63,265 nt of DNA, filler included, from Basidiobolus ranarum (GCA_040143965.1; 7 parts of 7 records of this genome joined end to end with filler, not necessarily neighbours in it); one strand, 5' to 3'; shown: positions 1 through 61,178, numbered from the whole stretch's first letter. Program-made: numbers and translations. The notes: generated from the letters alone by a model not told the origin.

Positions 1-180
1 GATTGCTGGGATCAAGTGGAACATAGGCACCACCAGCTTTGAGTACCGCAAGCATAGCTACAATCATGAATACTGATTTATCAAGACAGAGTGGCACCAT
101 CGATTCTGGACGAACACCGAGATCGATCAAATGATGAGCTAGTTTGTTGGCCCGTTGATTGAGTTCTGAATAGGTGACAT
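1..180. repeat. Near-identical 180-nt intragenic repeat in the NRPS A-domain N-termini (copies 1-180, 4697-4876, 7955-8134)
   Basis: Manual alignment shows about 6 differences to the copy at 4697 and about 7 to the copy at 7955. Confidence 0.95.
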
Positions 181-3100
181 ATTCAGAAGTTACAAACTGT
201 ACTGCTACAATATTGGGATTACGGTTTGCCTGATCTTCGACAATATGGTGAATAGAGACACTTGGAACACTTGTATAATTAGACGACTCTATGGGACAGG
301 CCAAGTATGTTTGGGTTTTGCTTAAAGCTATACTTAGTTGAGTAAGCTGTGTATCGACAGTTGCACTAACTAAGGCTTCAAACAAAGTTTTGAAGTCGCC
401 TGCGATTTGCTCGGCGTAAAATTTCGAGATTAAACTACCGCTCACATCCACAGTATAGATCATTTTTTTATCGTCTGAATATACATTTAACGCAAGGGAA
501 TACTATGCATAATGTGAAATTAAATATTAGTTAGCACACATACTTCTACTTGGATAAAGGCAATCAAAGAGACAAGATGCACATATGCCATATACCTACC
601 TCAGTTGCTTCATTGCCTGCTAATTGAACAAGTTTAGCATGCTTCTTAGACATGTTCATTTCTTCCGATTCAATTTTAACATCTGCTTTTTGGACAGGCT
701 CTACGGTATAGTTGACTAAAGTATCAAACACCGGAGATATTCCGATCCAAGTTTGAATATCACGTAAGCTACTCTGTTGATAGGAAAAGGCAGAGGCGTA
801 ATCATGATGGATCTCTTGAAGCCAGTCAATTACGGTGGTTTCATTTTGGCAGCGAACGTAGCATGGAAGTGTGTTGATACAAGGTCCAATGATGGATGAA
901 ACACCTTCTAGTTCGCTATTTCTTCCATTAACTGTATAGCCAAAGGTCACACCCTCATTTTGAGTATACACCTTCAATAATATGGCCCACGCTGCCTTGA
1001 CAAGTGTAAATACAGTGACCTTTGAATTCTGGGCAAACTGAGTGATGCTATAAATTGGTATATCAATTGAGCCGATGATGCGGTTCATGCCAGGATCGCA
1101 TTTCTCTGAAACGCCCAGTTTGGGAAAGGCCATTTTATCGAGTTGTGACAACTTACTTTTCCAGTAAGCCTCTTCCTCTTCAACAAAAGTTGGCGTTCGG
1201 TTGTGAATACTCCAAACAAAATCCTTGAATGAATGAGTCTTAGGACGTAGTTGCTGGTGGTAAATACTATGAAAATCATCCAGAACCAAACTCCATGCTG
1301 ATGCATCAAGAATAGCGTGATGCCAGCTGATTACAAACACACGTTGCTTCATGTCGATATCGAGTAGAGCAAACCGCATATTGGGTTGACCCAATTGGAA
1401 GCTCTTGGCTTTATCAGCGACTAGGTAGGTGGTAATTGCTTCGTCAGTGCACCCATCTGAGCAATGTATAACTGTCCATGGTGGGGTGTAGTCTTTGATT
1501 ACCATTTGTAAAAAGTTGAAGGGAGATGTATCAATCGGGTTTTCGATGAAAACTGAGTGTAGGATTTCGTGATCGCGAATAACTGTCATCCAGTCGTTTT
1601 GGAATTTAATCAAGTCGAAGTCACCAATAAGTTCAAATTGTTGCTGAATATGGTAGTAGCTAGAATTCTGGAGCATACCAGCAATGAGGCCTTCTTGAAG
1701 GGGTGTGCACGGAAAAATATCTTCAATGAGATTAGGATCAATCCCAGTGGCAGAAGAAATTTGAGGGTAAAGATAGCTAAACTCTGCTTCTGACAACTTG
1801 AGCATAGGAAAATCACTTCGGGTATGCTCAATGGCCTCAATTTGCGCGCAGCAACTGACAATGTCTATGAGAGTTTCTTGCCACCTTGAAAGCCACTGTG
1901 AAACTATCTCGAATGAGTGCAAACTGGGATTAAAAGTGATTACAGCTTGGAAACAGTGCTGATCCACATTTGCAGTGATGTCAAACACATGATCCCTTCT
2001 CCATTCGTTATCTATTTCTTCTAGATCAAAATCGAAAGGTGCTTTTACAGGTTGGAAAAATGAGTTTTCACTCTCCAGTTGTTGGAAACGGCCGAGATAG
2101 TTAAATCCAATTTGAATCACTTCCTGCTTGAAAGGATTCTCTGACTTCTCGCTAAGGTATCGAAGAAGTCCATAAATCATTCCGTTACCAGGCATGAGCT
2201 TTCGTAGATCTTTGACACGTTTCAGGATAGTCAATGGATCATCCTCCTGAGTGGCTTCTACAACGAGTGGATAGATCGTAGTGAACCAGCCTATAGTCCT
2301 TGATACATCGATTCCATCTCTCCACTCTTCTCGCCCGTGTCCTTCCATGCTAATAGTCATAGTATTCGTATTGAACACTGAGCAATAAGCTATCACCAAC
2401 GACGAGATCATCAGGTCGATAGCCTCAGTTTTGAAAGGGAGGTTGGACTTGCCAAACAGCTCCTCAGTTAATAAAGGCGTCAGTGTGAATGAGAGTGACT
2501 TCGATGACTGCATAGTATTTAGTTTTAAAAGAGCCAAATCACTGATAATCGGCCGAGATATTTTCTGCAACGGCCATGCTTCAATATTCAAGTCTTGTGC
2601 ATACGCATTGAGCATTGAGCTCCATTGCATAAAGGTCATAGACTTGTAACCAGGCATATTCCCTTGCAATAGTTGCTCAAGATCTTCCCAAATGATACGC
2701 CATGACACCAGATCAATGATAGTATGATGTACTGTCATAAAGAGCAACTGTGAGTCATCCTGCAAATCATATAGCGAGAACTGGAAGAGAGGGCCGGATA
2801 TTATATTGAGGCTACGTTGTAGATGATGAATGTGGTCTTTGAGCTCTTGGGCAGACTCTATTTTACTGTGATGAATTCGGAAGGCCACTTCGTCCATTGG
2901 TACGACTTTGGGTTGCCACTCATTTGCAGAGTATATAAAGCGACTGCGTAATACATCATGATGTTGAAGAAGAGTAGAGACTGCTTGAGAAAATTTATCG
3001 GCTGTGGTTGAGTCTCTCAGTTTGAGCAGCCATGATTGATTGAAATGATTTACATTTTCTTGCGGCATTTCAAAGAAGCGCTTTTGAATTGGGGTGAGAA

Positions 3101-6100
3101 GGATATTACCATGGGTAAGCAATGGGGTCTCAGCTCTCACGATTTCCACTAAAGTAGCAACTGCAGCTAGGGATCGAACGGTAGGGTTTTGCATGATTTG
3201 TTTCACGGAGAGCGAGATGCCTCTATGCCGACACAATGATGCTACCCGAATGGCTGAAATAGAATCCCCACCTAGTTGGTAGAACGAATCCAGGGTGCAG
3301 ATACTAGAAATGGGAATGTTAAGAATTTCAGACCATATCTCTTGGATTGCCTTTTCCATCGGTGCTGATAACTGAGTGTCACGTACAGTTTCGTTGTTCG
3401 ACCAGTTCATGATAGAGTCAAGATTTAACGATTTGAAGAGATCTGATAGCTTTCGGCGATCGATTTTCCCACTGGTGTTGATGGGGATAGTGGTAAGTGG
3501 CAACCATATACTTGGTATCATATATGGTGGAAGTTGTTTGCGCGCAATATCTTTCAGTTCCTCAATATACATAGAAGCAGCGGGAGCATGTGAGATAGAT
3601 AGTGCCTTAGAATCAGTATTTTCATGGTTCAAGTCGCAAAATGTCAGAAATACCACCAGTGACTTTCGATTGGTAGTATGATCAGTAAGTATTGAGAGTG
3701 CACATATTCCCGTTACTTTTGAGTGGCCATGAAGAATTCTCTCTATTTCACCTAATTCTATTCGCAAGCCATTGATTTTAATTTGGTGATCTTTCCTACC
3801 AACCAACTCTACAGATCCATTGTCAATGAATAGAGCAAGGTCACCAGTGCGATACAGTCGACATCCAGGTGCAAAGGAACTCGTCACAAATGCTTTCTCA
3901 GTGAGATCAGGCCGATTTAGATAGCCACGAGCGAGCTGAGGGCCAGCAACGCACAATTCACCTACCGATCCTATCGGTACTGGACGCATATCTGGGCTCA
4001 TAAGATATATTCTATTGCTTCCAATTGGTTTGCCAACATCACTACACACGACCTTCTCATCGAGACGAGGGTTTGCCAAAATAGCCACCGCAGCTTCAGT
4101 AGGACCATAGGCGTTACTAAGCTCTACATATGGTAGCCATGTGTTACGGGCTGCTGTTGTCATCATTTCACCGCCCATCATCAGTCTCTTCACTGATGGC
4201 ACCTCGATCGGGTCAATCAGTGTCGCAATTGTGGGAGTCAGCATAAGTGCTGTGACATTCATAGTATTTATGCAATGCTCTAAATCAGAGAGTAAGCTTT
4301 CCTTCGGAGCCAGTGCTACAGTAGCTCCAGCAGCAAATGTGCAATATATTTCGATCACTGAGGCATCGAAAGTATAGTTGGCGAATTGCAAGACTGAGTC
4401 ATGGGTAGTGAGTTTCCACACTTCGCCTAAGGCTTGTATGAAGTGGGTCACGGCGGAGTGTTCCAGCATGACTCCTTTTGGCACGCCAGTAGATCCTGAA
4501 GTGAATAGTACATAGCATAAGTTCATAGTGCTGAGTCCATCTACTTGAGGGTTCTTGTGTGAGGCTAGTTTGAGGGCTTCTTCTTCGGTATCAAGGAGAA
4601 TAAGAAGTCGGTTACTGAAGTTCTGCTTGTATTTGTCTAGCGTCACCACAATCTTAGCTTTTGTCTCTTCAAGAATAAAATTGTTTCGCTCAGCAGGATT
4701 GCTGGGATCAAGTGGAACATAGGCACCACCAGCTTTGAGTACCGCAAGCATAGCTACAATCATGAATACTGATTTATCAAGACAGAGTGGCACCATCGAT
4801 TCTGGACAAACACCGAGATTGATCAAATGATGAGCCAGTTTGTTGGCCCGTTGGTTGAGTTCTGCGTAGGTGACATGTTCGGAAGTCTCAAACCTTACTG
4901 CAATATTGTTGGGATAAAGGAGTGCTTTCTTTTCAAATAGGTAATGAATAAAAGTAACTTCGATATCATCGACACTACCACTCCAGTTTCGTACCAGTGC
5001 AGCTTCCTCGGGTATTATAATGTTTATATTTTTCACTATAGTGTGAGGATCATGAAGAATTATGTTGAGTGCTGCCTTAAAATGGTTAACTATCCAGCGT
5101 GCTTCAAATTCTGTTACTATCTCTTTGTTGTATGTTAAAGTGAGCTGGTGGTTCGATCCTTCTGTGCTCAACTCCATCACTATCGAATAGTCGATCGGCA
5201 TGGCTGTCGTTAGCTCTTTCAGCCCAACGGATGTCAAATCCCCGGATGTACTTACTAGATCAAGGTTCTGGATTGCTAAGAGAGAATCAAAGAGTGAACT
5301 TACACCTCTACCGCAGCAATGCTTCAAAATATTCTGCAATCCGATAGCTTGATGAGGGACCTGTTGAATTTGAGTGGTATGAATCAATTTGATCAAATCA
5401 AAAAGGGTCGAATCCTCGGTCATAGAGATACGCACGGGTAATACGTTAATACAAGGACCACATATATCCTGTATGTTTTGGAGAGGAACGTTTCTTCCCG
5501 AATTCACTACACCAAAGACAACATCGGAAACACCAATGTGGAACTTCAACACCATCGCCCACGCTAGATAAGCGATGGTGGCAATTGTGACATTGTGTAC
5601 TCTAGTCAGCGGACTGAAATCTGCAAGCAATATATCAGTTATGGTCGATGGTAGCTGAGGCTGCTCTGAAACAGAAATAGATCTGGCCAAATGAACTGTC
5701 GATACGTTTCTAAGTGTGCTTTCCCAATATTCTAGAGATCTTTGCTTGTCCAGTGATAATAAGTAGTCAATATAGATGCTGTACGAAGGCCTAGTGAGTG
5801 TAACGTCATTGTGATAGGCTGTGAGAACATCGTTTACTAAATGACCCATAGACCAGCCATCGTAAAGTGCGTGATGAATGGTCCATATGAGATAGGCAGC
5901 CTTGCCATTGCATTGCAGTAAAGTAAATCGAGTTAGCGGTTCATCCATGCGTATTCCTTTAGATCTATCGTTCATTAGAATACTTGAAAGATCACCTTCT
6001 AGTGAGCTCTCATCGGCAGTCTTGTAGATATTCCATTTAACATGCTTACTATTTAAAACTAGCTGAAGCGCACTCAAGTGAGCAAATCCACTTGTTGAAA

Positions 6101-8976
6101 ATTTTATCGTAGTTCGAAGAATTGGATTGGCACATATGACGGTTTCTATGGCTGTCCGAAGCCGGTTGTAATCAAAACTGAGCTCGCATCGATATACTCG
6201 CTGAGTAAGGTAATTTGCATTATCTTTCATACTCAAAGCAACAAGTCCCTCCTGGAGCGGTGAACAGGGATATATATCATCCACATCAACCAAGTCAATG
6301 CCGTTTTGCAATATATCACAATCCAACAAATGCTCAAGCTGATCATTTTCCAGGTCAAGTAGTGAGTATCTTACTGTGGACTTGGGTGCCTGACAATCAG
6401 AGTTTACAAGTAAACTTATTGAAGCAATCTCTGCAATGGTCGGATATGAGTAGAGATCCAGCACAGTGATCTTAAATCCAGCTTTGTGTGCAGCACCAAC
6501 TAGTCTTATGGCTAAGATGGAGTCACCTCCTAAAGCGAAGAACGAATCGTTTACTCCTATCGAGTCGGCAGGAGCGTTAAGAACAGATGACCATATATTT
6601 ATCCAACTTTCCTCGGCTGGCGTTCTAGCTTTGACGTGACCACTACCAACAGTTTGGTTTAGCAATATCAGATCGGCTTTATCGATGGTTGTAAAGAAAT
6701 CAGTGAAAAAATTGCGGTCTATCTTCTCACTTGCCGTGGTAGGCATTCTGCTGATGGGTACCCAGATTGTAGGGACCATGTAGGATGGAAGTTTTTTCCA
6801 AACTTTATGTTTCACATCAGCGATAAACGGAGCTGTGATGTCAGAATACGTCTCCCCAAGTAGGCTCATAGGAAGACTGTTATCCGCAAGATGCTTAAAA
6901 ACGATGAACGCAGCAAGATACTTGTGATTTGTTTCAGCATCAGTGATCAAGGGAAGTACACAAGCACTGGCGACCTGAGAGTGATCATATATCGCGTGCT
7001 CAATCTCATCCAATTCAACTCGCAAGCCATGAATCTTGATCTGATTGTCTTTTCTGCCCATCAACTCTACTGATCCGTCTTCATTAAATCGAGCAAGATC
7101 ACCAGTTTTATACATTCGTTCTCCTTCCACAAAAGGATTAGCCACAAAGGCTTTCTGTGTAAGATCTGGTCGGTTTAGATATCCTCGGGCCAGTTGAGGG
7201 CCAGTAATATACAGTTCACCAATCACACCTATAGGTACTGAATTCATATTTTGGTCAAGGATAAAGATTTTGTTTCCTCCAATTGGATTCCCTAAATTGC
7301 CACACGAAGTTGTATGGCTTACTTCAGAGTTGATCAAGACAAGGACAGTGGTTTCAGTTGGACCGTAACCGTTGCTTATCTCAGCGAAAGGAGACCAAGA
7401 GTTGCGAGCATTGGTAGTGAGCATTTCACCTATAAACATTAATTTCTTCACAGATGGGACTTGGGTTGGGTCAATATATGCAGCAATTGTAGGAGTTAAC
7501 ATCATACAAGTCACATTCAACATTGAGATAGATTTTTCCAGATCAGAGAGTAGATATTCCTTGCGAGTTAAAGAAATTCGAGCTCCAGCACTTAATGAGC
7601 AAAATATTTCAAACACAGATGCGTCGAAAGTGTAATTCGCAAACTGCAGAACTGAGTCATCGGTGGTGAGTGTCCAAGCTTGATTAATACCATGAATAGA
7701 GTTGACCACGGCAGAATGCTCTACCATAACTCCTTTAGGTGTACCTGTGGAACCTGAGGTATATAGCACATAACAGAGGTTGGATCCAGTCAATTGCCTC
7801 ACTTCTGGATTGACCTTGGGGTTTTGTTGAATTATCTCATCATCTGTATCAAGGAGAACCAAGTCTACTTTCTCGAAAGCTTGCTTGTACTTGGAGAGTG
7901 TTATTACCACCTGAGCCTTTGTATCATTGACTATAAACGTATTTCGCCCAGCAGGATTGCTGGGGTCTAGTGGAACATATGCACCACCCGCTTTGAGTAC
8001 CGCAAGCATAGCTACAATCATGAATACTGATTTATCAAGACAGAGTGGCACCATCGATTCTGGACGAACACCGAGATCGATCAGATGATGAGCTAGTTTG
8101 TTGGCCCGTTGGTTGAGTTCTGAGTAGGTGACATATTGCGATGTATGAAATTGCACCGCTATATTACCAGGGTGGGTAAGTACATTCTGTTCGAACAAGG
8201 AATGACCATAAGTTACTCCAGTAACATTAAAATTTGTGCCGCTCCAGCTCTCTACCAGAACTGTTTCTTCAGTTGTTACTACACTTATATCTTTCATCAG
8301 AGTGTGAGGATCGCTTAAAATCGCTCTCAATGCTGTCATGAAATGGTTGACGATCCACCGTGCTTCAAACTCAGTCACAACTTGTGTGTTGTATGTCAAC
8401 ATGAATTGGTGATACAATCCTTTGGTATTCAGCTCCATCACTATGGGATAATTGGCAGGCATAGCTGCTGTTATCTCCTTCAACCCAATGGCGGCAAGAC
8501 CCTGCGTTATAGCTTCCAGATTGAGATTTTGAATCACTAAAAGAGAATCAAAAAGTGAGTGAACACCTTCATCGCTGCAATGCTTGAGAATATCCTGTAA
8601 TCCAACAGTCTGATGGTCACTTCGTTCACTTTGAGTGGCCTGTATCAACTTCATTATACTCAAAAGAGATGAATCATCCGGCATAGAGATACGGATTGGC
8701 AGTGTATTGATACATGGTCCACAGATATCTTGTATATTCTTGAGAGGAATGTTCCTTCCCGAATTCACAGCACCAAACACAACGTCTGAATTTCCAGTGT
8801 GTACTTTTAGTACCATTGCCCAAGCTAGATAAGCGACTGTGGCCATTGTAATGGCATGAACATTGGTCAATGAATTAAAATCTGCATGTAACTCCTCTGT
8901 AATTTGTGATGAACATTGAAGTTCTCCCAAACCAAAAGTTGACTTAGCCAGGTGTGTTACTGATACATTACTCAGC
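1..8976 (-). CDS. Multimodular nonribosomal peptide synthetase, internal fragment open at both contig ends: C(partial)-A-T-C-A-T-E-C-A(partial); one intron 503-599
   Basis: The 2788-aa ORF has two A domains (YTSGSTGTPKG / FTSGSTGVPKG, YGPTE, YKTGDL / YRTGDL), two T domains (FFALGGDSI, FYQLGGDSI), C domains (HHALYDGWS, HHAILDASAW) and an E domain (HHTIIDLVSW, EGHGRE, RTIGWFTTIYP). A GTAGGT...GCTAAC...TAG intron at 599-503 restores the frame into YSLALNVYSDD... and a third A-domain start (TYSELNQRANKLAH...LKAGGAYVPLDP). Confidence 0.97.
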
Positions 8977-9076
8977 NNNNNNNNNNNNNNNNNNNNNNNN
9001 NNNNNNNNNNNNNNNNNNNNTTAATTAATTAANNNNNNNNNNNNNNNNNNNNNNNNNNNNNNNNNNNNNNNNNNNN
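8977..9076. other. Artificial contig spacer (N44-TTAATTAATTAA-N44)
   Basis: Identical 100-nt linker with stop codons in all six frames, repeated six times in the window. Confidence 0.99.
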
Positions 9077-18045: not shown

Positions 18046-18145
18046 NNNNNNNNNNNNNNNNNNNNNNNNNNNNNNNNNNNNNNNNNNNNTTAATTAATTA
18101 ANNNNNNNNNNNNNNNNNNNNNNNNNNNNNNNNNNNNNNNNNNNN
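18046..18145. other. Artificial contig spacer
   Basis: N44-TTAATTAATTAA-N44. Confidence 0.99.
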
Positions 18146-22852: not shown

Positions 22853-24483
22853 ATCTTACTATGGGGTAGTACAGGAGGAAAGCAATTCTAAAAGGATATA
22901 CCGGTTTATAGAAGTAACAGGAATAGGGGTTTGATATTGAAGAACGGACTTTTTTTGCTGTTAAAAATCTTGCAAAAAAGGCGATTTCTATTTGTTTGGA
23001 GTATGTTTATATCAATTTCCATTCATAGATAAGTCCCTTGGTCGCCATAGGACAAGTAGATATGTCTAGAACCATTTTGGATTCTGACCTCCCTCCAGTT
23101 CTTGTAGCAAGGGGATTGGTTGAGGGAGAACCTGGCTAAAGCGTACTATAGGTTACCAATTGAGACAATGATCTCAAAGGTCACCGCCTGTCAGGTTTTA
23201 TCTGCATCTCTTTTGTGTGTGTTCACCGTAATTCATACATAAATTCTTGCGGGTTTCACAAGGTACCAGTCAATCCCTGGAGATTAATAGCAGTGATTTG
23301 CTCTGGTATGCCTACGTGACGAATTCATTACAAGTATCCTGTGAGTCAAGAACATAGTTATGCTGTGTGTCTGGAGGCAATAGAAGTGCAATGCGTGTTT
23401 CTGCTCTGCCGCGAAGACTCTCAGCACTGTTGAGAACGATTTGTTGTACAGAATGTGAACCACGTAGGTTTTAAAGGTTTCACTATGATCAGCATTAATA
23501 AATTGTACCAACCCAGTATTTATTATTGGAGACTGTTAGACGATCACACAGTAACGAAAGCTTGGTAATAGCGATAGCAATTGGGAAACCTACAATCAGA
23601 ATAATGAGGCTAGAGCTGTAAAATTGATTCCGGTCATTAATTTAACTTGTCACAGTGACTGCGCCATATTCCAATTACTCTGAATAACCCCCTAAATGCA
23701 TACAAAGCATACACACGCTCCCATTCTCATTCTCACCCATCTTTTCTTCGCACTACATACTTCGATGTATATGCATTTTGAATCTGATATACGACAATAT
23801 GAGCACGATGCTCGAGATCTGATCTCCAAACAAACACTGAAAAAGCCATTACTTGACTGGCATTCATAAGCCTCCGCTTTGGATACGTTTTATATCCGTG
23901 CTTGAATGCCTTACATACCAATATGGGAAAAGCACCTAGCATCTACATTGGCCAAACCCAATCTTATTGTATTTAATTTGCTAAAGCTCTGCCATTCGTT
24001 CAAGAAATCTATATCGGATCCTTCACTCTTGATTGGCTAACCTGGGATCTTGAATAAAATCAGAATTACTGCGATGCTGTCATTATGAAGAATGCTACTG
24101 AAATGCGTTTCCTGCATGCAATCTTCGCAAGGCCAATCTTGACTAACTAATCGTTGTAATATTTATGGTGGTTTCAATTTGGAAGGGGCAGTGCTGCTAT
24201 ATATACAGCTGATATCGTGTGGAACCCATGAGCATTATCTCAATTAACAAGTCTTTATCTAATTGCTTCGTAATCTCTGGGGTTTTGGGATAATTTAACT
24301 TGTTTGAATACATTCCCACAAAGTAATGCTTATTACCAAATTAGCTATCTTCTGATACGTTTCTTTTCTTTAAAGCAACCACATCGTGCGTGTATCTCTT
24401 GGCTCTATTTTGTGGGGTTTCTTTGTACTGAGTGATTTCTCTTACTTTCTTCGTTGGTGTTTCGGAAAAAACTACGTTGTAGG

Positions 24484-27107
24484 ATGAGTATTTCTCCAGT
24501 CAGAACGGCTGTATTACGCTCTGCCAAAAATCCTATTGAAGTCATCATTCTATGTCTGATAGTCTTTTCCTGTGCTTACTATGCCATCTGGCATAATATA
24601 AGATACTCGAATCTTTTTGCTGAGCAGTTTCCTAAACAGAGCAATATAACCTTGGTTCATGTTGATAATCAATTCACCCCCATCAGCCAACTCGATGTTC
24701 ATAAATATGAAGGCATTCGACGCTTTCACCTGAAACAAGTACTGGTTTCTTCCTCAAAGTACACTTTAACCGAAGCCTCTAACATTGAAGTTACTCACGC
24801 CACTTTATCTTCTATTTCTGAACTGGACCAATATCTTTCTCAAAATGTGACTGTTTCGGATACTTCTGGATCTTATACTTATCAAAGCGACTTATGCTTC
24901 AAACTGGATGATTCTACATGCTTCAGCTCCAAGTCTGACCTCACAAACCTCAACTCTCCTACACATGTTCTTTCATATATTTTTGACAGTAATGATGAAG
25001 GAAAAGAAAGTCTCATCGCCCAATGGGAAGACAAAGCCTCAACCGCGCATGTCACCAACGTCGTTCCACCTACATTTTCCTCTGACGGTACAACTGCTCA
25101 TTGGTTAGTTACGTTACTCACTTACGGCTCTTTCAAGGTTAAAGAGCTAGTGGATCAAGCGAATAGTGCCGAAGTTACGCTAGTTCTGATCGCCTATGTG
25201 TTAATGCATGGAACAATTGCTCTATTATTCATTAATATGCGCGGTATTGGGTCGAAGATAACACTTGCTGTAGCTGTTTTGATGTCTAGTATATCTGCCT
25301 TTATACTAGCTCTTGTTACCGTCCGTGCTCTAGACATACCGATTAACCTCGTTATGCTGAGTGAAGCAATTCCGTTTTTGGTTATCACAATTGGCTTTGA
25401 AAAACCTCATACCCTAACAAAGGCCGTTTTATTTGCTAAAGGCTCTACGCAGGCTGAGACTACTGCCGATAGTGGAGAAGGTGCCATCACTTCTATCTCT
25501 GTCCAGGATAAAGTATTGTCCGGAGTCCAGAGCGTCAGTGGTGCTATCCTCAAGAGTTACTTTTTGGAGATTGCGTTGTTACTATGCGGTGCCTTTTCCA
25601 ATGTCCACGGTCTAAAAGAATTTTCCGCGTTGGCTGCTTTGATCCTTTTCTTCGATTGCATTTTTCTCTTCACTTTCTATACCGCCGTTCTAACCATTAA
25701 GCTTGATCTGATGCGTATTCGTGAAGAGAGAATCTATGGTGGTAAAAAAGGGCCTACCAATGCTAGTCCTGCTTTCATCAAACGTCTCACTATTGAAGCT
25801 CTCAAAGATAATGTTGGTGTTGATTCTGTGAAAAGACTCGAAAATCCCACTGTTGGTCGTATCAAGTTATTGATGATCTTTGGATTTTTGGCCACTCATA
25901 TTTTTAATATTTGCAGCCCGCTAAATAATGACTCCACCAAAGATTTTGCTGCTATTTCTCTTGACTTTGACGACCCCTCGATCCGTTCTAGCCTCGACCT
26001 TCTTCTCTCCAACCATCAAAGCAATAGTGCTCAGAATGGTCTTCCTCTTATTGTTGATATATCCGCCCCTTTGGTTTTCCGTCTTGTCAATTCTCAATCT
26101 GCCATTAGGGAACTGATGGAATCTGCTTACGTTATTGCCCACTTAATTGATTTGTATATGAAGGATACAATTGTTTATATCCTAACCTTCTTCTGCTTAG
26201 TGGCTTCCTTGATTTTCAATGCCTATTTGTACAATCTCTCCAAAACCGAAAGTTGTGAAGCAGAGTCCTATCCAACTTCTGCTACTACGGTACACCCTAC
26301 AGTTACAAATCAACCCCCAACACCGTCGATTGTGTCAACCTCCAAGACCCTGACTAAGACAGAGGTATCTACTGATGATATCATTCGACCGGTAGAGGAA
26401 TGCCTTAGTATTCTCAACTCAGAGTTAGGACCTCATGGACTGACCGACGCAGAAGTGCTGAACCTCGTTAGTAGTGGTAAGATTGCTCCTTATGCATTGG
26501 AAAAGGCTATGAAAGATCACGTTCGTGCCGTAAAGATCCGTCGTGCCTTGATCTCCCGTAGCTCAACTACGCAAACACTTGAAGACAGCCTATTGCCTGT
26601 TGAACATTATGACTATTCCAAAGTTACGGGGCAATGTTGTGAAAATGTCATAGGGTATATCCCAATTCCGGTGGGTATTGCTGGTCCCCTTAACATAGAT
26701 GGTCACTCTTACCATATTCCCATGGCCACTACTGAGGGATGTCTTATTGCTTCTACTGCTCGTGGTTGTAAGGCCATTAATGCTGGAGGAGGCTCTATAA
26801 CTATATTAACTAACGATGGAATGGCCAGAGGGCCTGTACTTCAATTTCCTAACATTACTCATGCAGGTGTTTGTAAGACCTGGGTCGAAGGAGAAGGATT
26901 CGAATTCATCGTATCTACGTTCAACTCGACCAGTCGTTTTGCTAAACTGACGAAACTCAAAGTTACATTAGCTGGGCGATTAATGTTCATTAGATTTGTA
27001 ACTACCACTGGTGACGCAATGGGCATGAACATGATATCCAAGGGGGTTGAAAAAGCTCTCATTGCTATGAAAGAACAATTTCCTGAGATGGAGATAATAT
27101 CGCTTAG
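24484..27107 (+). CDS. HMG1: HMG-CoA reductase (class I, membrane sterol-sensing domain), 3' truncated
   Basis: NPIEVI N-terminus, SSD (EAIPFLVITIGFEK) and catalytic motifs CCENVIGY, PMATTEGCL and TGDAMGMNM. No intron in the visible part. Confidence 0.97.
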
Positions 27108-27207
27108 NNNNNNNNNNNNNNNNNNNNNNNNNNNNNNNNNNNNNNNNNNNNTTAATTAATTAANNNNNNNNNNNNNNNNNNNNNNNNNNNNNNNNNNNNN
27201 NNNNNNN
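27108..27207. other. Artificial contig spacer
   Basis: N44-TTAATTAATTAA-N44. Confidence 0.99.
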
Positions 27208-32021: not shown

Positions 32022-33583
32022 ATGGGTGAGGCAAAGCTAGATTCGGCTACAGGTACTTGTATCAAGAGTCCTCATGACTCTCGAAACATCAGCTATCCTA
32101 CATACACCTTGTTCTGCGTAATGATTGCTTGCATCGTGATGTTCTGCAGTGGGTTTAACACTTCTTCTACTAATATCAGTGAGTAAAGCCTGCCTTTATC
32201 CATACTATCAAGTGCTTGCTGACTTTAATTCTTTCTCTAGCTTCTGACGCTATTCGCAACTGTGACCAATCAAATGAGAAGTTGAGCGGTACTTTTCCTT
32301 ACTGCTTCAATATGGGCTCTTGGTTGTGGGGCTTCGCTGTTGGTAGTGGTGCTCTCGGTGGCACAATAGGTAGTATGTGTGCTGGTTATGCCCAGGAAAG
32401 ATTCGGCCGCCGTAATGCTCTTTTGATCAACAACTTTTTCTTCGTTCTGGGTGGTATTTTGATTGGCTGCTCTATCAATCCTGGTATGTGGACTGCTGGT
32501 CGTTTTTTCATGGGCTTCTCTTGTGGCTATGGCGGAGTGGTCTTGCCCACTTACATTGGTGAAATTGCTCCAACCAAGACTAGAGGTACACTCGGATCTA
32601 TCAACCAATTTTATACAGTGATCGGTATTGTCGTCGTTTTATGTATGAGCTTGGGTATGTCCACACCCGTCGGCTGGAGAGTATTGGTTGCGCTTCCGGG
32701 TGCTTTCGGACTTGTCCAGGCGATCTTAATACCATTGTGTGTTGAAACCCCACGGTATCTTGTTTCAAGAGGGCGTCTGGAAGAAGCAAGAGCCGCTTTG
32801 GTCAGATTAAGAAGTGGATACGATATTGAGGCAGAGTTTGAAGAAATTGTTCAAGCCCGGGAGGCTGCCAAAGATCTTCCCAAGAGTCTCGGTTTCGGGG
32901 AAATTATGAAAGACCCTTACTGCAGAAAGAATTTTTTTATCTCCATTGGTATCAGTCTTCTTCAACAATGGTCCGGCATTAACGGTGTGATGTACTATTC
33001 TACTTCTATCTTTACCGATATTTACAGTGACACTGCTAAATATGTCACTGTGGGTCTCTGTTGTCTAAACGTTGTCATGACCATCATTTCCGTTGCTTTA
33101 ATCGATCGTGCGGGTAGAAAAATCTTATTGCTTGTTTCCAGCGGTGGCTCCGCTATCTTCTGCGTTCTGATGTGCGTTGGCCTACAGGTGCCCAGCAATG
33201 GTCTAACAGTAGCAGCTAGTAAGTATTTGATTACATTCCATCATTCTGCATTAAATGTCACTAATTTACCTTTTTTCAAAGTTATGATGTTTGTTGGCTC
33301 CTTTGCTATTGGCCTTGGTTCTATTCCTTTCCTTATCATGAGCGAATTGATGCCAACCAATGCTATCTCCACCACCACCAGCTTCACTCTCACAGTCAAT
33401 TGGCTCTCTAATTTTGTCATCGGTCTCATATTCCCCACTCTCTCTGACGCTATGCACGGCTACGTCTTCATCATTTTTGCTTCATGCTGTGCTATAGGTT
33501 TCTTGGGAGTTCTCTTTTTCGTTCGTGAAACCAAGGGAAAGAGTATTGAAGAGTTGACTTCTGAAAGCCATAACAAGAATTAA
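32022..33583 (+). CDS. MFS sugar porter (GLUT-like hexose transporter); introns 32179-32240 and 33219-33281
   Basis: Motifs ERFGRR, GEIAPTKTRG, VETPRYL, QQWSGINGVMYYS, IDRAGRK and RETKGKSIEE, with about 12 hydrophobic segments. Confidence 0.95.
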
Positions 33584-36152: not shown

Positions 36153-36252
36153 NNNNNNNNNNNNNNNNNNNNNNNNNNNNNNNNNNNNNNNNNNNNTTAA
36201 TTAATTAANNNNNNNNNNNNNNNNNNNNNNNNNNNNNNNNNNNNNNNNNNNN
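36153..36252. other. Artificial contig spacer
   Basis: N44-TTAATTAATTAA-N44. Confidence 0.99.
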
Positions 36253-37756: not shown

Positions 37757-39991
<2,235 letters not shown>

Positions 39992-43717: not shown

Positions 43718-44224
43718 ATGAAAAGCTGGTCGATCATTATTTGCATAACCTTCTTATTTCTACAAGTAATATCGGTTACTGCTGGCTTCCAAGATGTCAG
43801 TAACGTGCAGGGCACTAACGGACGTGAAAAGAAAGCGAAAAAATCTCCATCAGGCAATGGGGATGTTCAAAAAATGCTTGCTTTAGTCAACCAACAACGT
43901 CAACGAAATGGGGTCAAACCACTCAAACTCGACAATCGTTTAGTACGAGCAGCTCAGAAACATACTGATTATCAAGCCCGTGTTAGTCAAATGACTCACG
44001 AAGAACCTGGAAGACCTTTGCGTACTCGTGTTGCTGAAACTGGCTTCAAAGGAGGATATATCGGGGAAAATGTAGCTCAAGGGTATACTAGTATCAAGGT
44101 TGTCATGAAAGGTTGGATGAATTCTGCTGGACATCGACGAAACATTCTCGATCCACAATTTACCTCCTTTGGATCTGGCTATGTTGCCAAAGGGAAGTAT
44201 TGGACTCAGGTTTTCGGTGCCTAA
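43718..44224 (+). CDS. Secreted CAP/SCP domain protein, YkwD-like cysteine-poor type
   Basis: Signal-peptide-like N-terminus, motifs LVNQQR, AAQKHT, GENVAQG, GWMNSAGHRRNIL and YWTQVFG. It is intronless, with a TATATAAAA upstream at ~43645. Confidence 0.92.
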   Translation: MKSWSIIICITFLFLQVISVTAGFQDVSNVQGTNGREKKAKKSPSGNGDVQKMLALVNQQRQRNGVKPLKLDNRLVRAAQKHTDYQARVSQMTHEEPGRPLRTRVAETGFKGGYIGENVAQGYTSIKVVMKGWMNSAGHRRNILDPQFTSFGSGYVAKGKYWTQVFGA

Positions 44225-45192: not shown

Positions 45193-45292
45193 NNNNNNNN
45201 NNNNNNNNNNNNNNNNNNNNNNNNNNNNNNNNNNNNTTAATTAATTAANNNNNNNNNNNNNNNNNNNNNNNNNNNNNNNNNNNNNNNNNNNN
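45193..45292. other. Artificial contig spacer
   Basis: N44-TTAATTAATTAA-N44. Confidence 0.99.
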
Positions 45293-54230: not shown

Positions 54231-54330
54231 NNNNNNNNNNNNNNNNNNNNNNNNNNNNNNNNNNNNNNNNNNNNTTAATTAATTAANNNNNNNNNNNNNN
54301 NNNNNNNNNNNNNNNNNNNNNNNNNNNNNN
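54231..54330. other. Artificial contig spacer
   Basis: N44-TTAATTAATTAA-N44. Confidence 0.99.
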
Positions 54331-54807: not shown

Positions 54808-56129
54808 TTATGAAGCATTCTCATGATTCGGCTTCCTCCACAAGATGTTCTTTTCCAAATATAAAGCCACATATACAAGTACTAATAAAACTGGGACTTC
54901 GATCAACGGACCAATAGTAGCCGCAAGTGCTTGATCAGAGTTTATACCGTAGACTCCTACTGCGACAGCAATGGCTAGTTCGAAGTTATTGCTGCCAGCT
55001 GTGAAAGACTGAGTAACCACGAGTTGGTATGGAAAGTGGCAGGCACGCATCACAAGAAATGTGATGAAGAACATTAGAATGAAATATAGAAGCATAGGAA
55101 CTGCAACACGACATACAGACCCAATGTTCGCAATAATGTGATGCCCTTGATTCGCAAACATAATAACAATGGTGTATAGAAGTCCTATCAATGCAATGGG
55201 GCTAAATCGCGGCATGAAAGTGCTGTCATACCATTTGTCTCCTTTGAGAGACCGAAGGCTAGATCGCGTGATAATGCCTGCGACAAGAGGGATTCCAAGA
55301 TAAATAAGAACAGATTTTGCTACTGGCCACATGCCCAAGACAACCTTCTCCTCGACTTTGACTCCAAACCACGTTGGTATGATATTAATAAACAAGATAC
55401 TGTAGGGAGAATAGAGTGCAATCTGGAGAATGGAATTAATTGCAACTAGAATCGCACAATAATCCGAGTCTCCTCCGGCAAGTTGATTCCAGATAAGAAC
55501 CATAGCAATACACCTACATCATTAAATATAAATACAATGTATTATCAACGCTACTGATTTCTGATCACATACCGAGCAAGACCAACCATAATTACACCAG
55601 ATCGATATCCTGGCAAGTCTGGTAATGTAGCCCAAGCAAGGGCTGTCATGACTATAGGTCCTACTATCCAGTTTAAAACCATCGAGATGACAATCTGGAT
55701 CCAAATCTGGCGTTGAGTGAAAATCTTATGCATCTTCTCATATTGAACCTTGCAAAGAACGGGATACATCATGACTAATAATCCAATCGCTATGGGCACC
55801 GAAACAGTATCGAACTGGATTGTAGAAAAAGCCTCCTGGACTCCAGGAACAAAATATCCGATGAGTACACCAACGATCATGGCAAGAATAATCCAAATAG
55901 CAAGATATGTATCGAGAAACCCTAAGTCTTTAGTAAATGCTGTTGTAAAAATACGCCATGTTAGAATAGGAAATGTACTATAAAAATCAGTTCACTTACA
56001 TGCTAATTTCTCCTCTCCGGCTGCCTGAGTGTTTAAAGTATTAGAAGCAGGATAAACAGTTTCATCTTGACTACTCTTCACCAACACATCGCCAAGTCCG
56101 TGGTGATGTTTAAGATATTTGTCGGACAT
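54808..56129 (-). CDS. ACR3: Arsenite efflux transporter; introns 55940-55999 and 55514-55572
   Basis: LGFLDTYLAIWI, PIAIGLLVMMYP, LNWIVGP, GLARCIAMVLIW (essential Cys restored by splicing), SNNFELAIAVA and GPLIEVP. Confidence 0.96.
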
Positions 56130-59968: not shown

Positions 59969-61178
59969 ATGTCCATGAAGTGTGCAATCTTTAATCAGCC
60001 AGGCAGCGCCCTGGAAATAGTCGAAGTACCCATTCCCAAGCCAGGTCCAGGTGAGGTTCTAATCAAGGTTGAAGCATGCGGAGTTTGTCATGGGTAAGAT
60101 AGTCTAATACACTTCTTAGGCTATTATATGCTACTAAACAAGCCTTCTTATGGATGTCGATAGTGACTGTATTCTTGAGCATAATCTTATGCCTGGAATT
60201 AATTACCCTGTGATTCCAGGTCACGAGGTGGTCGGTAGAATCCATGAAGTGGGTGAAAATGTAAGTGATTTTCGAAAGGTGCGGACTGTAGTGGCGTTAA
60301 ATTAAGTTCTATGTTCAAAGATCTCTTCACTGTATAAAGAGGGTATGCGTATTGGTGTGGGATGGAACGGCGGATACTGTGGTAATTGTGAAGCATGTCG
60401 TCGTGGAACTTTCATTGATTGTGACAAAGGCTGGATAACTGGAGTAAAACAGAATGGAGGATATGCACAATACATGATCGCCAGACAAAGTGCCTGTTGT
60501 AGAATTCCTGAGGAGTTAAGTGCGCCTGAAGCAGCCCCTTTGGTTTGCGCAGGAGTTACCATGTACAACTCTATGAGAAACATGAACAATATCCATCCAG
60601 GGGGTGTATGTGCTGTAGTAGGTATTGGTGGACTTGGCCATCTAGCCATTCAATACGCCAAGAAATTTGGCTACCGTACAGTGGCACTGTCGAGTTCATC
60701 AAGCAAGAAAGATCTTGCAACAGAATTAGGCGCTCATGTCTATATTGATCAATCCAGTCAGGATGCAGTCGAGGAGCTGAAGAAGTTAGGAGGAGCAAAA
60801 TTGATAGTTGTTACAGCCCCTGGTGGCGATGTAGCGAAGTTGCTGGATGGTTTGGCATTTGATGGTACTTTATTAATTGTTTCATTGCTGCCCGAGCCTT
60901 TACCAGTCAGTTCTCTCAGTCTCATAAGTAAGAGATCTCAAGTCCGTGGATGGTCATGTGGGACCCAAGCGGTAAGTATTTTTTTGGTTTAGGGAAATAT
61001 AGAAACAGTGGCTAATTTAGAAACAATTCTATAGGACACTGAAGATACTTTGAATTTTTCTGCTTTGACTAACACGAAGCCATTAGTGCAAACGTATACT
61101 ATTGATCAAGCCAGGCAGGCCTATGAGGACATGAAAAATGGAAAGTCAAGGTTCCGTGCGGTAATAGTATTTGATTAG
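59969..61178 (+). CDS. Zinc-dependent alcohol dehydrogenase (MDR family); introns 60094-60163, 60261-60320, 60972-61034
   Basis: ACGVCHGD, PGHEVVG, structural Zn motif CGNCEACRRGTFIDC, APLVCAGVT, the GIGGLG Rossmann motif and C-terminal SRFRAVI. Confidence 0.96.

Follow-up and report, generated by a model that had tools for sequence, protein, structure and literature searches.

An internal fragment of a multimodular nonribosomal peptide synthetase gene with a predicted epimerization domain in Basidiobolus ranarum

The DNA analyzed here, referred to below as the window, is a stretch of 63,265 nucleotides from the gut fungus Basidiobolus ranarum (GCA_040143965.1) made up of seven contigs. Its first 8976 positions are one complete, stand-alone contig that is filled throughout by a fragment of a gene for a nonribosomal peptide synthetase (NRPS). 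The gene lies on the minus strand, where an open frame runs from 8975 to 564 (2803 aa, P0001) and resumes in another frame, from 502 to 2, past an intron. A phmmer search seeded with the window's own domains gave the order (C)-A-T-C-A-T-E-C-(A) along this strand, where C, A, T and E are condensation, adenylation, carrier and epimerization domains and the first C and the last A are partial. An earlier note, made from the sequence alone, had read the same order in what it took to be an early-diverging fungus. The organism agrees with this, since NCBI places B. ranarum in the Basidiobolomycota, and the order is confirmed by Pfam, by motifs and by the domain map; to it we add the strand, the 97-nt intron and the status of the contig. 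The gene was also described as open at both ends, and it does exceed the contig: position 8976 is a contig end and not a gene boundary. We consider it probable that positions 1–8976 are an internal fragment of a large NRPS gene that is native to B. ranarum and is one copy in a diverged family.

The NRPS protein contains four stretches of the Pfam Condensation family, two of AMP-binding, two of PP-binding and one of AMP-binding_C. In NCBIfam, it matched TIGR01733 twice and gave long partial matches to models of multimodular NRPSs. The scores were 6.7e-157 for Pfam AMP-binding and 5.1e-247 for TIGR01733. Two full sets of A-domain motifs from A3 to A10 are present (A3 SGSTGxPKG, A4 FDxS, A5 NxYGPTE, A7 YxTGD, A8 GRxDxQxK and the A10 K), the carrier motif with the phosphopantetheine serine, GGDSI, occurs at aa 816 and 1902, and HHxxxD is found at aa 1034, 2083 and 2552. 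With its A-domain motifs, carrier serines and condensation His-His/Asp, the protein is a type I modular NRPS.

All of the following features are on the minus strand. The fragment begins with the C-terminal 238 aa of a C domain (aa 1–238, 8262–8975), the HHxxxDG part of which lies beyond the contig end. This partial domain was recognized by phmmer with the second C domain as seed and is 61.3% identical to the corresponding part of that domain. It thus belongs with the C domains that come after a T domain (post-T), which implies a preceding module without an E domain, so that the gene would comprise at least four modules, where at least three had been proposed. A domain 1 (aa 256–760, 6696–8210; Pfam AMP-binding, TIGR01733 and motifs A3–A10) has LgrA, GrsA-PheA (1AMU, 1.9e-92) and TycA among its matches in the PDB. 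It is followed by T domain 1 (aa 786–860, 6396–6620; Pfam PP-binding, motif and domain map), with GGDSI at aa 816–820, and, directly after T, by a C domain (aa 890–1325, 5001–6308; best Pfam stretch 899–1325) with HHALYDGWS at aa 1034. The next module consists of A domain 2 (aa 1342–1846, 3438–4952) and T domain 2 (aa 1872–1945, 3141–3362), both supported by Pfam, motifs and the domain map, and an E domain (aa 1950–2400, 1776–3128) identified by its motifs, its PDB matches and its place in the E clade of the trees. T domain 2, which carries the GGDSI at aa 1902, feeds this E domain. A second complete C domain (aa 2410–2860 of the spliced protein, 299–1748; Pfam, motif and domain map), referred to as the post-E C domain, has HHAILDASAW at aa 2552. 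The contig runs out in A domain 3, of which the N-terminal 84 aa remain (2–253; domain map).

The post-E C domain is split by a spliceosomal intron of 97 nt (503–599; donor GTAGGT, acceptor TAG) that contains a branch-like CTAAC. The intron shifts the frame by one base, and joining the two frames across it restores the C-domain alignment that is present in the paralogues described below.

Modules 1 and 2 share 55% identity over 884 aligned positions, with 58% between the two A domains and 39% between the two T domains. At the protein level, the start of A domain 3 is 82% identical to that of A domain 1 and 81% identical to that of A domain 2, and its first 61 visible residues are identical to those of A domain 1. 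The corresponding DNA (1–254) is 83% identical to the A1 copy (7955–8208) and 88% identical to the A2 copy (4697–4950). With such a run of identical residues and DNA identities of 83–88%, the copies are old and kept by selection and did not arise by collapse in the assembly. This pattern points to strong purifying selection on the start of the A domain across old module duplicates.

The earlier note had described a full E domain in the second visible module. The strings that it quoted are present in the protein, HHTIIDLVSW at aa 2083 (nt 2700–2729), EGHGRE at aa 2211 (nt 2328–2345) and RTIGWFTTIYP at aa 2226 (nt 2268–2300), and the domain is indeed complete. All seven E-type motifs, the names and patterns of which we take to be those of the NRPS literature, lie within aa 1950–2400 (PIQKRF, HHTIID, DLMISSL, EGHGRE, RTIGWFT, GMIYGLLR and FNYLG), in a domain placed T-E-C. 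In a search of the PDB, the 10 chains matched at E ≤ 1e-10 were all NRPS proteins (1e-40 to 1e-57), including GrsA, TycA, TycB, PvdL and bacitracin synthase 3; the matched parts of these chains are presumably E domains. The domain shares 17–20% identity with the window's own C domains, and a joint E and C tree separated the two kinds with a support of 100. Judged by its sequence, it resembles known E domains more closely than C domains and has the marks of an E domain.

The C domains of the family fall into two types. Among B. ranarum fragments and the window, 17 of 17 post-E C domains were of one type and 7 of 7 post-T domains of the other, and both complete C domains of the window sit in the clade expected for their type. 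The domain at aa 890–1325 falls in the Basidiobolus post-T clade (support 96), while the post-E C domain belongs to a clade (support 100) made up of 17 C domains that follow E in Basidiobolus and one N-terminal C. The tree position of the C domain after E is consistent with its belonging to the post-E (DCL-type) C domains. In the joint E and C tree, all 37 fungal C domains, post-E or post-T, formed one clade (98) nested among the post-E domains of bacteria and apart from their post-T domains, so that the LCL and DCL labels used for bacteria cannot simply be carried over to these fungal domains. Because of this nesting, both complete C domains of the window best matched the same solved chains in the PDB, which we take to be C domains of the D-acceptor type. 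We considered a dual E/C function for the post-T C domains and rejected it, since the dual motif HH[ILM]xxxxGD had no match anywhere in the spliced NRPS protein and all fungal C domains nest in the bacterial post-E group.

The closest relatives of the gene are found in B. ranarum itself. When the T-E-C region was used as the query, the best 9 of the 120 matches listed were all B. ranarum proteins (43–65% identity). A query with the 450-aa E piece, in a search that covered proteins of 789–2250 aa, gave 9 further B. ranarum proteins at 38–54%, as well as P0008 at 66%. The nearest relatives are at least 18 B. ranarum NRPS fragments (P0002–P0010 and P0242–P0259; 38–66% identity), annotated merely as hypothetical or carrier-domain proteins, and none of them is characterized. 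Nor did these searches turn up a near-identical, characterized NRPS, the kind of match that the earlier note had said would speak against its proposal. When 1.84 billion representative proteins were searched with the E domain, no relative outside B. ranarum exceeded 57% identity. Among the relatives from this search was P0396 (728 aa, E-C), which is 60% identical to the window. Another protein, P0438 (4932 aa), has the order A-T-E-C-A-T-C-A-T-C-A-T-C-A and is collinear with P0006, with 51% identity over ≈3476 aa. Both P0396 and P0438 could belong to other species of Basidiobolus.

The domains of the 18 B. ranarum fragments were mapped by phmmer with the window domains as seeds. Counting the fragments together with the window, an E domain follows 22 of the 29 T domains that have a visible successor. 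Epimerase modules are thus the norm in this family, and the E domain is not the distinguishing feature that it had appeared to be from the contig alone. Three of the fragments (P0249, P0251 and P0259) end in A-T-E followed by a thioesterase (TE, PF00975). At the other end of the family's genes, P0006, P0007, P0010, P0244 and P0245 have an N-terminal region of ≈240 aa that matches no window seed, followed by A-T-E-C. These five share the A-domain code DALQQGGVYK, which is also found in P0003 with one change. With five such N-terminal fragments, the genome holds several such genes; from their sequences, these would share one starter module, and the first residue of their products would be epimerized.

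One paralogue, P0008 (hypothetical protein K7432_012810, partial), is collinear with the window gene in a T-C-A-T-E-C-A order, with 60% identity over 2182 aa (66% for the E domain, and 69% for the A domain against A domain 2 of the window). Although it comes from the same organism, 60% is too low for an allele or for the same gene, and P0008 is thus a diverged paralogue.

The collinearity with P0008 bears on whether the module order of the contig is real. The contig could be an assembly chimera or a collapsed repeat of paralogous NRPS modules, and there are reasons to take this seriously: breaks within NRPS genes occur all through the assembly, most of the paralogue proteins are partial and lie on contigs of 3–22 kb, and identical protein stretches are common to the modules. 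Furthermore, aa 1572–1640 of the window protein (≈nt 4056–4262, minus strand, in A domain 2) are identical to aa 1–69 of P0259, an A-T-E-TE fragment on a 69.7-kb contig, beyond which the identity drops, in successive blocks of 50 columns, to 76%, 58% and below. Nevertheless, at 83–88% identity the DNA repeats inside the contig differ too much to have been collapsed, the frame is open over 8.4 kb, the domains are all complete and follow the canonical order, and P0008, on an independent contig, has the same domain order. We therefore regard a chimeric or collapsed contig as improbable. We also attempted to join the contig to another fragment. None of the B. ranarum fragments included a paralogue continuing either contig end, and the join was rejected, since there was no match at the ends and the sole long identical stretch, that shared with P0259, is in the middle of the contig. 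The fragment P0252 stops in a post-T C domain, only a few residues from where the NRPS contig starts (nt 8975) in the homologous domain, and the two sequences differ; a common spot that is hard to assemble, such as an intron or a repeat, is possible there.

Contamination of the B. ranarum assembly by a dikaryan or bacterial contig was the other doubt raised in the earlier note. The contig is short, stands alone and has no flanking genes. No protein near 100% identical to it was found in the homologue searches (T-E-C region, E piece and the 1.84 billion representatives), and the NRPS gene seems to be without a gene model in the collections searched. In spite of this, there is no sign of a foreign origin. 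The 18 B. ranarum proteins are by far the nearest relatives, and some of them are on contigs of 20–70 kb (P0259, 69,730 b; P0009, 22,090 b), whereas Dikarya and bacteria reach only ≈30–37% identity; bacteria are also excluded by the spliceosomal intron. The coding GC (0.424) and the GC at third codon positions (0.399) are inside the range of eight open reading frames (ORFs) from the other pieces of the window. Likewise, the relative synonymous codon usage of the NRPS gene correlates with that of the pooled ORFs of those pieces at r = 0.68, where the ORFs themselves gave leave-one-out values of 0.26–0.85. Thus, a contaminant is highly improbable, and we give it even less credence than a chimera.

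Some observations weigh against reading the contig as an intact, native NRPS fragment of the kind described. In the post-E C domain, A replaces the G of HHxxxDG (HHAILDA), which is non-canonical, although the His-His and Asp are retained and the same variant occurs in the paralogues P0002, P0003, P0004, P0005 and P0252. The absence of a near-identical protein in the searches counts on the same side, as does the 69-aa tract shared with P0259, which could result from recombination or gene conversion between paralogues or be an artefact of assembly or gene modelling. Finally, the A-domain codes considered below rest on anchor positions assumed from the GrsA numbering and match no code that we can name, which makes the substrate call weak.

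We next consider the origin of the family. The earlier note had proposed A-, C- and E-domain trees against MIBiG; such trees were built and place the family beside Dikarya, with a sample of homologous proteins in place of MIBiG. The sample comprised 53 of the 360 proteins collected: the window, 18 from B. ranarum, 23 bacterial, 9 from Dikarya and 2 from other early-diverging fungi (Calcarisporiella and Globomyces). The bacterial rows were named matches picked to span phyla, taken from the top-match lists only, and the Dikarya rows were all 9 Dikarya-named matches among those listed. Only E domains of at least 400 aa, C domains of at least 380 aa and A domains of at least 440 aa were used. The model was LG+G4 with no mixture, and the composition was deviant in many rows.

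The E tree had 74 rows, of which the 21 from Basidiobolus formed one clade (99) that was joined to 11 Dikarya rows (96), and all 34 fungal rows were split from all 40 bacterial rows with a support of 99. The C tree (84 rows) separated 37 fungal from 47 bacterial rows (98). In the A tree (96 rows), 26 Basidiobolus and 12 Dikarya rows were joined at 95, and 56 of the 57 bacterial rows made up one separate group (87), outside of which fell a single long-branch bacterial row, P0301_A1. The lone A domain from another early-diverging fungus went with the bacteria (74). The fungal E clade was recovered in the joint E and C tree (158 rows) with a support of 99, and in a quick IQ-TREE analysis of 37 of the 74 E rows, with seven C domains as the outgroup, it had a support of 100, with Basidiobolus and Dikarya joined at 89. 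An IQ-TREE analysis of the E-C didomain, with 40 of 51 units and 932 columns, placed the 18 bacterial units on one side (100/100, and in every one of 200 bootstrap trees); the units dropped were 7 bacterial and 4 Basidiobolus ones, mostly second units or close paralogues.

These trees have to be set against the picture drawn by Tabima et al. (2020), in which Basidiobolus acquired NRPS genes from bacteria. In that work, the A domains are sorted into fungal and bacterial clades and 30–60% are called transfer candidates (PMC7466969, accessible part). Under this alternative, the window gene would have been acquired recently and separately from gut bacteria and would be "bacterial-like", as are MpcA and MpbA of Mortierella. 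The match lists lean that way: after B. ranarum, the matches to the T-E-C region were bacterial or unnamed (Calothrix, Paenibacillus, Acidobacteriota and Pseudomonas), with the first Dikarya protein, P0020, at rank 19 of the 120 listed, and the bacterial PDB matches of the A domain (≈1e-90) are far better than that of the fungal SidN (6e-53). The gene also has one intron in 8.9 kb, and transfer candidates are reported to be intron-poorer (PMC7466969, accessible part). An approximately unbiased (AU) test in which Basidiobolus and bacterial E domains formed one group, with Dikarya, both other early-diverging fungi and the outgroup outside it, did not reject that grouping (p = 0.227), but this says little, because moving the root alone meets the constraint.

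Against a recent bacterial transfer stand the fungal/bacterial split in the E, C and E-C trees and the separate bacterial group of the A tree, the union of Basidiobolus with Dikarya in the E and A trees, the fungal E clade that persists when the tree is rooted on C domains, and the absence of the dual E/C motif. In the trees of our own sample, the Basidiobolus domains do not appear nested among bacterial sequences, the placement that would mark the transfer clades of Tabima et al. A transfer candidate in their screen is a gene with bacterial matches only and no fungal ones, to the extent that the screen is described in the accessible text (PMC7466969), and Dikarya matches do exist for the window gene. 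A recent, separate bacterial acquisition of this gene is unlikely. The alternative suggested by the trees, that the B. ranarum family shares ancestry with the E-containing NRPSs of Dikarya, with no separate recent transfer, we regard as about evenly balanced between true and false. Shared ancestry of this family with Dikarya leaves the transfer of other Basidiobolus NRPSs uncontradicted. If it is correct, the E-containing type of NRPS predates Dikarya, and transfer calls based on matches overstate the bacterial origin of this part of the Basidiobolus NRPS repertoire.

The domain order suggests how the visible modules would work. Module n (C-A-T) would add an amino acid and hand it on unchanged, while module n+1 (C-A-T-E) would add a second one, which the E domain is predicted to turn to the D form while tethered. 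The next C domain, from the clade that always follows E in the family, would then join the chain, now ending in a D-residue, to the amino acid that module n+2 loads, giving a product stretch of the form ...L-Xaa, L-Xaa, D-Xaa, Xaa.... The activity of the E domain, the D configuration, the substrates and the mode of release are all inferred from sequence. Anchoring on the FDxS, LxPT, GGE and xYGPTE motifs gave 10-residue codes of DAFMMIGVLK for A domain 1 and DAIMMGAVAK for A domain 2, and of DAIMIGAVAK for the collinear A domain of P0008; the ten pocket positions are assumed to follow the GrsA numbering. Both complete A pockets are lined with hydrophobic residues, which weakly suggests hydrophobic amino acids as substrates. 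Since the three terminal fragments of the family end in A-T-E-TE, release is probably by the thioesterase.

The known systems closest in organization are the multimodular NRPSs of Dikarya with a stand-alone E domain (Penicillium, Fusarium, Chaetomium, Aspergillus, Arthroderma and Pseudogymnoascus), which share the separate E followed by a dedicated C domain. They are on the same side as Basidiobolus in the A, C, E and E-C trees, apart from the sampled bacteria, but are only ≈30–37% identical to the window. The terminal TE (PF00975) of the Basidiobolus fragments is another difference from many fungal NRPSs, in which a cyclase-like terminal C domain often replaces the TE (10.1101/2020.08.21.262279, accessible part). 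Bacterial NRPSs with E domains (GrsA, TycA/B, PvdL and bacitracin synthase 3) have the same set of E motifs and the same fold family, and provide the best matches among solved structures (1e-40 to 1e-57); the mechanism is presumably the same. They differ in their low identity (≈28–35%) and in falling on the other side of the 100/100 split, while the window gene has a spliceosomal intron.

The malpicyclin and malpibaldin synthetases of Mortierella alpina, MpcA and MpbA, are also from an early-diverging fungus, build D-residues into peptides (predicted for the window), are TE-terminated and have introns (10.1101/2020.08.21.262279). According to the accessible part of the same source, they rely on dual E/C domains of the bacterial kind, which bear HH[I/L]xxxxGD near the N-terminus and cluster with endobacterial domains. 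In the window gene, by contrast, the E domain stands by itself and the dual motif is missing, and the gene clusters with Dikarya. A full-text search, with most subscription journals outside its reach, returned a single paper, on Mortierella, and no printed analysis of the E domains of Basidiobolus NRPSs. In the accessible text of PMC7466969, neither epimerization nor epimerase occurs as a word, and B. ranarum is named only among the references.

Several claims of the earlier note lose weight when seen against the genus. An NRPS outside Dikarya is no surprise here: Basidiobolus, which the note had itself named as an exception, has 18–30 NRPS or NRPS-like core genes per genome (PMC7466969, accessible part). 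Nor would peptides with D-residues be new, since cyclic pentapeptides with D and L residues, the basidiosins A–L and meristosporins A–C, are already described from B. meristosporus (PMC10964425; PMC11376311; accessible parts). They are the kind of product that an E-rich, TE-terminated family would make, but they come from another species, and the window family is at most a candidate source of them. The one gene link proposed is for a different gene model, which has methylation domains, and still needs genetic confirmation; the accessible part of the same source gives no Basidiobolus NRPS with a confirmed product (PMC7466969). As of 2023, ≈15 natural products were counted from all Zoopagomycota, 12 of which are Basidiobolus cyclopentapeptides (PMC10478498, accessible part). 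As a tentative proposal, held less firmly than the shared ancestry on its own, the E-rich, TE-terminated family would be an old fungal lineage with an ancestry in common with the E-containing NRPSs of Dikarya, would not have come recently from gut bacteria and would produce the D/L cyclic peptides known from the genus.

The contig is thus a new, uncharacterized and apparently intact NRPS fragment in a genus known for its richness in NRPSs and for D/L peptides. The find is modest and will hold little surprise for a specialist: it adds one more set of uncharacterized modules and reveals a large, diverged B. ranarum family in which epimerase modules are usual. With few known products and no confirmed product of a Basidiobolus NRPS, any intact NRPS of the genus is a fair target for genome mining. 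Most useful is perhaps the phylogenetic by-product, the four domain trees that tie the family to Dikarya despite the bacterial top matches outside Basidiobolus, which bears on the real extent of the NRPS transfer reported for Basidiobolus.

The rest of the window consists of unrelated pieces. The seven contigs, of 8976, 8969, 8962, 8945, 8940, 8938 and 8935 b, are joined end to end in order of falling size through six identical linkers with no strand, N44-TTAATTAATTAA-N44 (8977–9076, 18046–18145, 27108–27207, 36153–36252, 45193–45292 and 54231–54330), which account for 528 N in twelve runs of 44. The linkers are artificial and not biology, each being a six-frame stop. The falling sizes and the six-frame stop show that the window is a concatenation of length-sorted contigs. 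Because the contigs are artificially joined, no other sequence in the window is physically linked to the NRPS gene, arguments from neighbourhood across the linkers are void, and to call the gene the strongest candidate of the window, as had been done, has little meaning. The third piece contains an HMG-CoA reductase with a sterol-sensing domain (24454–27107, plus strand; Pfam PF00368 and PF12349) that is cut by the contig end. The fifth contains a 729-aa ORF for glutamine-fructose-6-phosphate aminotransferase (GFAT; 37802–39991, plus strand). Compared with the annotated B. ranarum protein P0122, all 695 of the 695 aligned residues of this ORF are identical, and the sole difference is a 20-aa gap that corresponds to a 60-nt in-frame intron read through by the raw ORF. 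Other ORFs in the pieces encode a CAP-domain protein (43718–44224), a sugar transporter (32216–33583), a member of the bile-acid-symporter family (54808–55503) and a zinc-type alcohol dehydrogenase (60345–60992).

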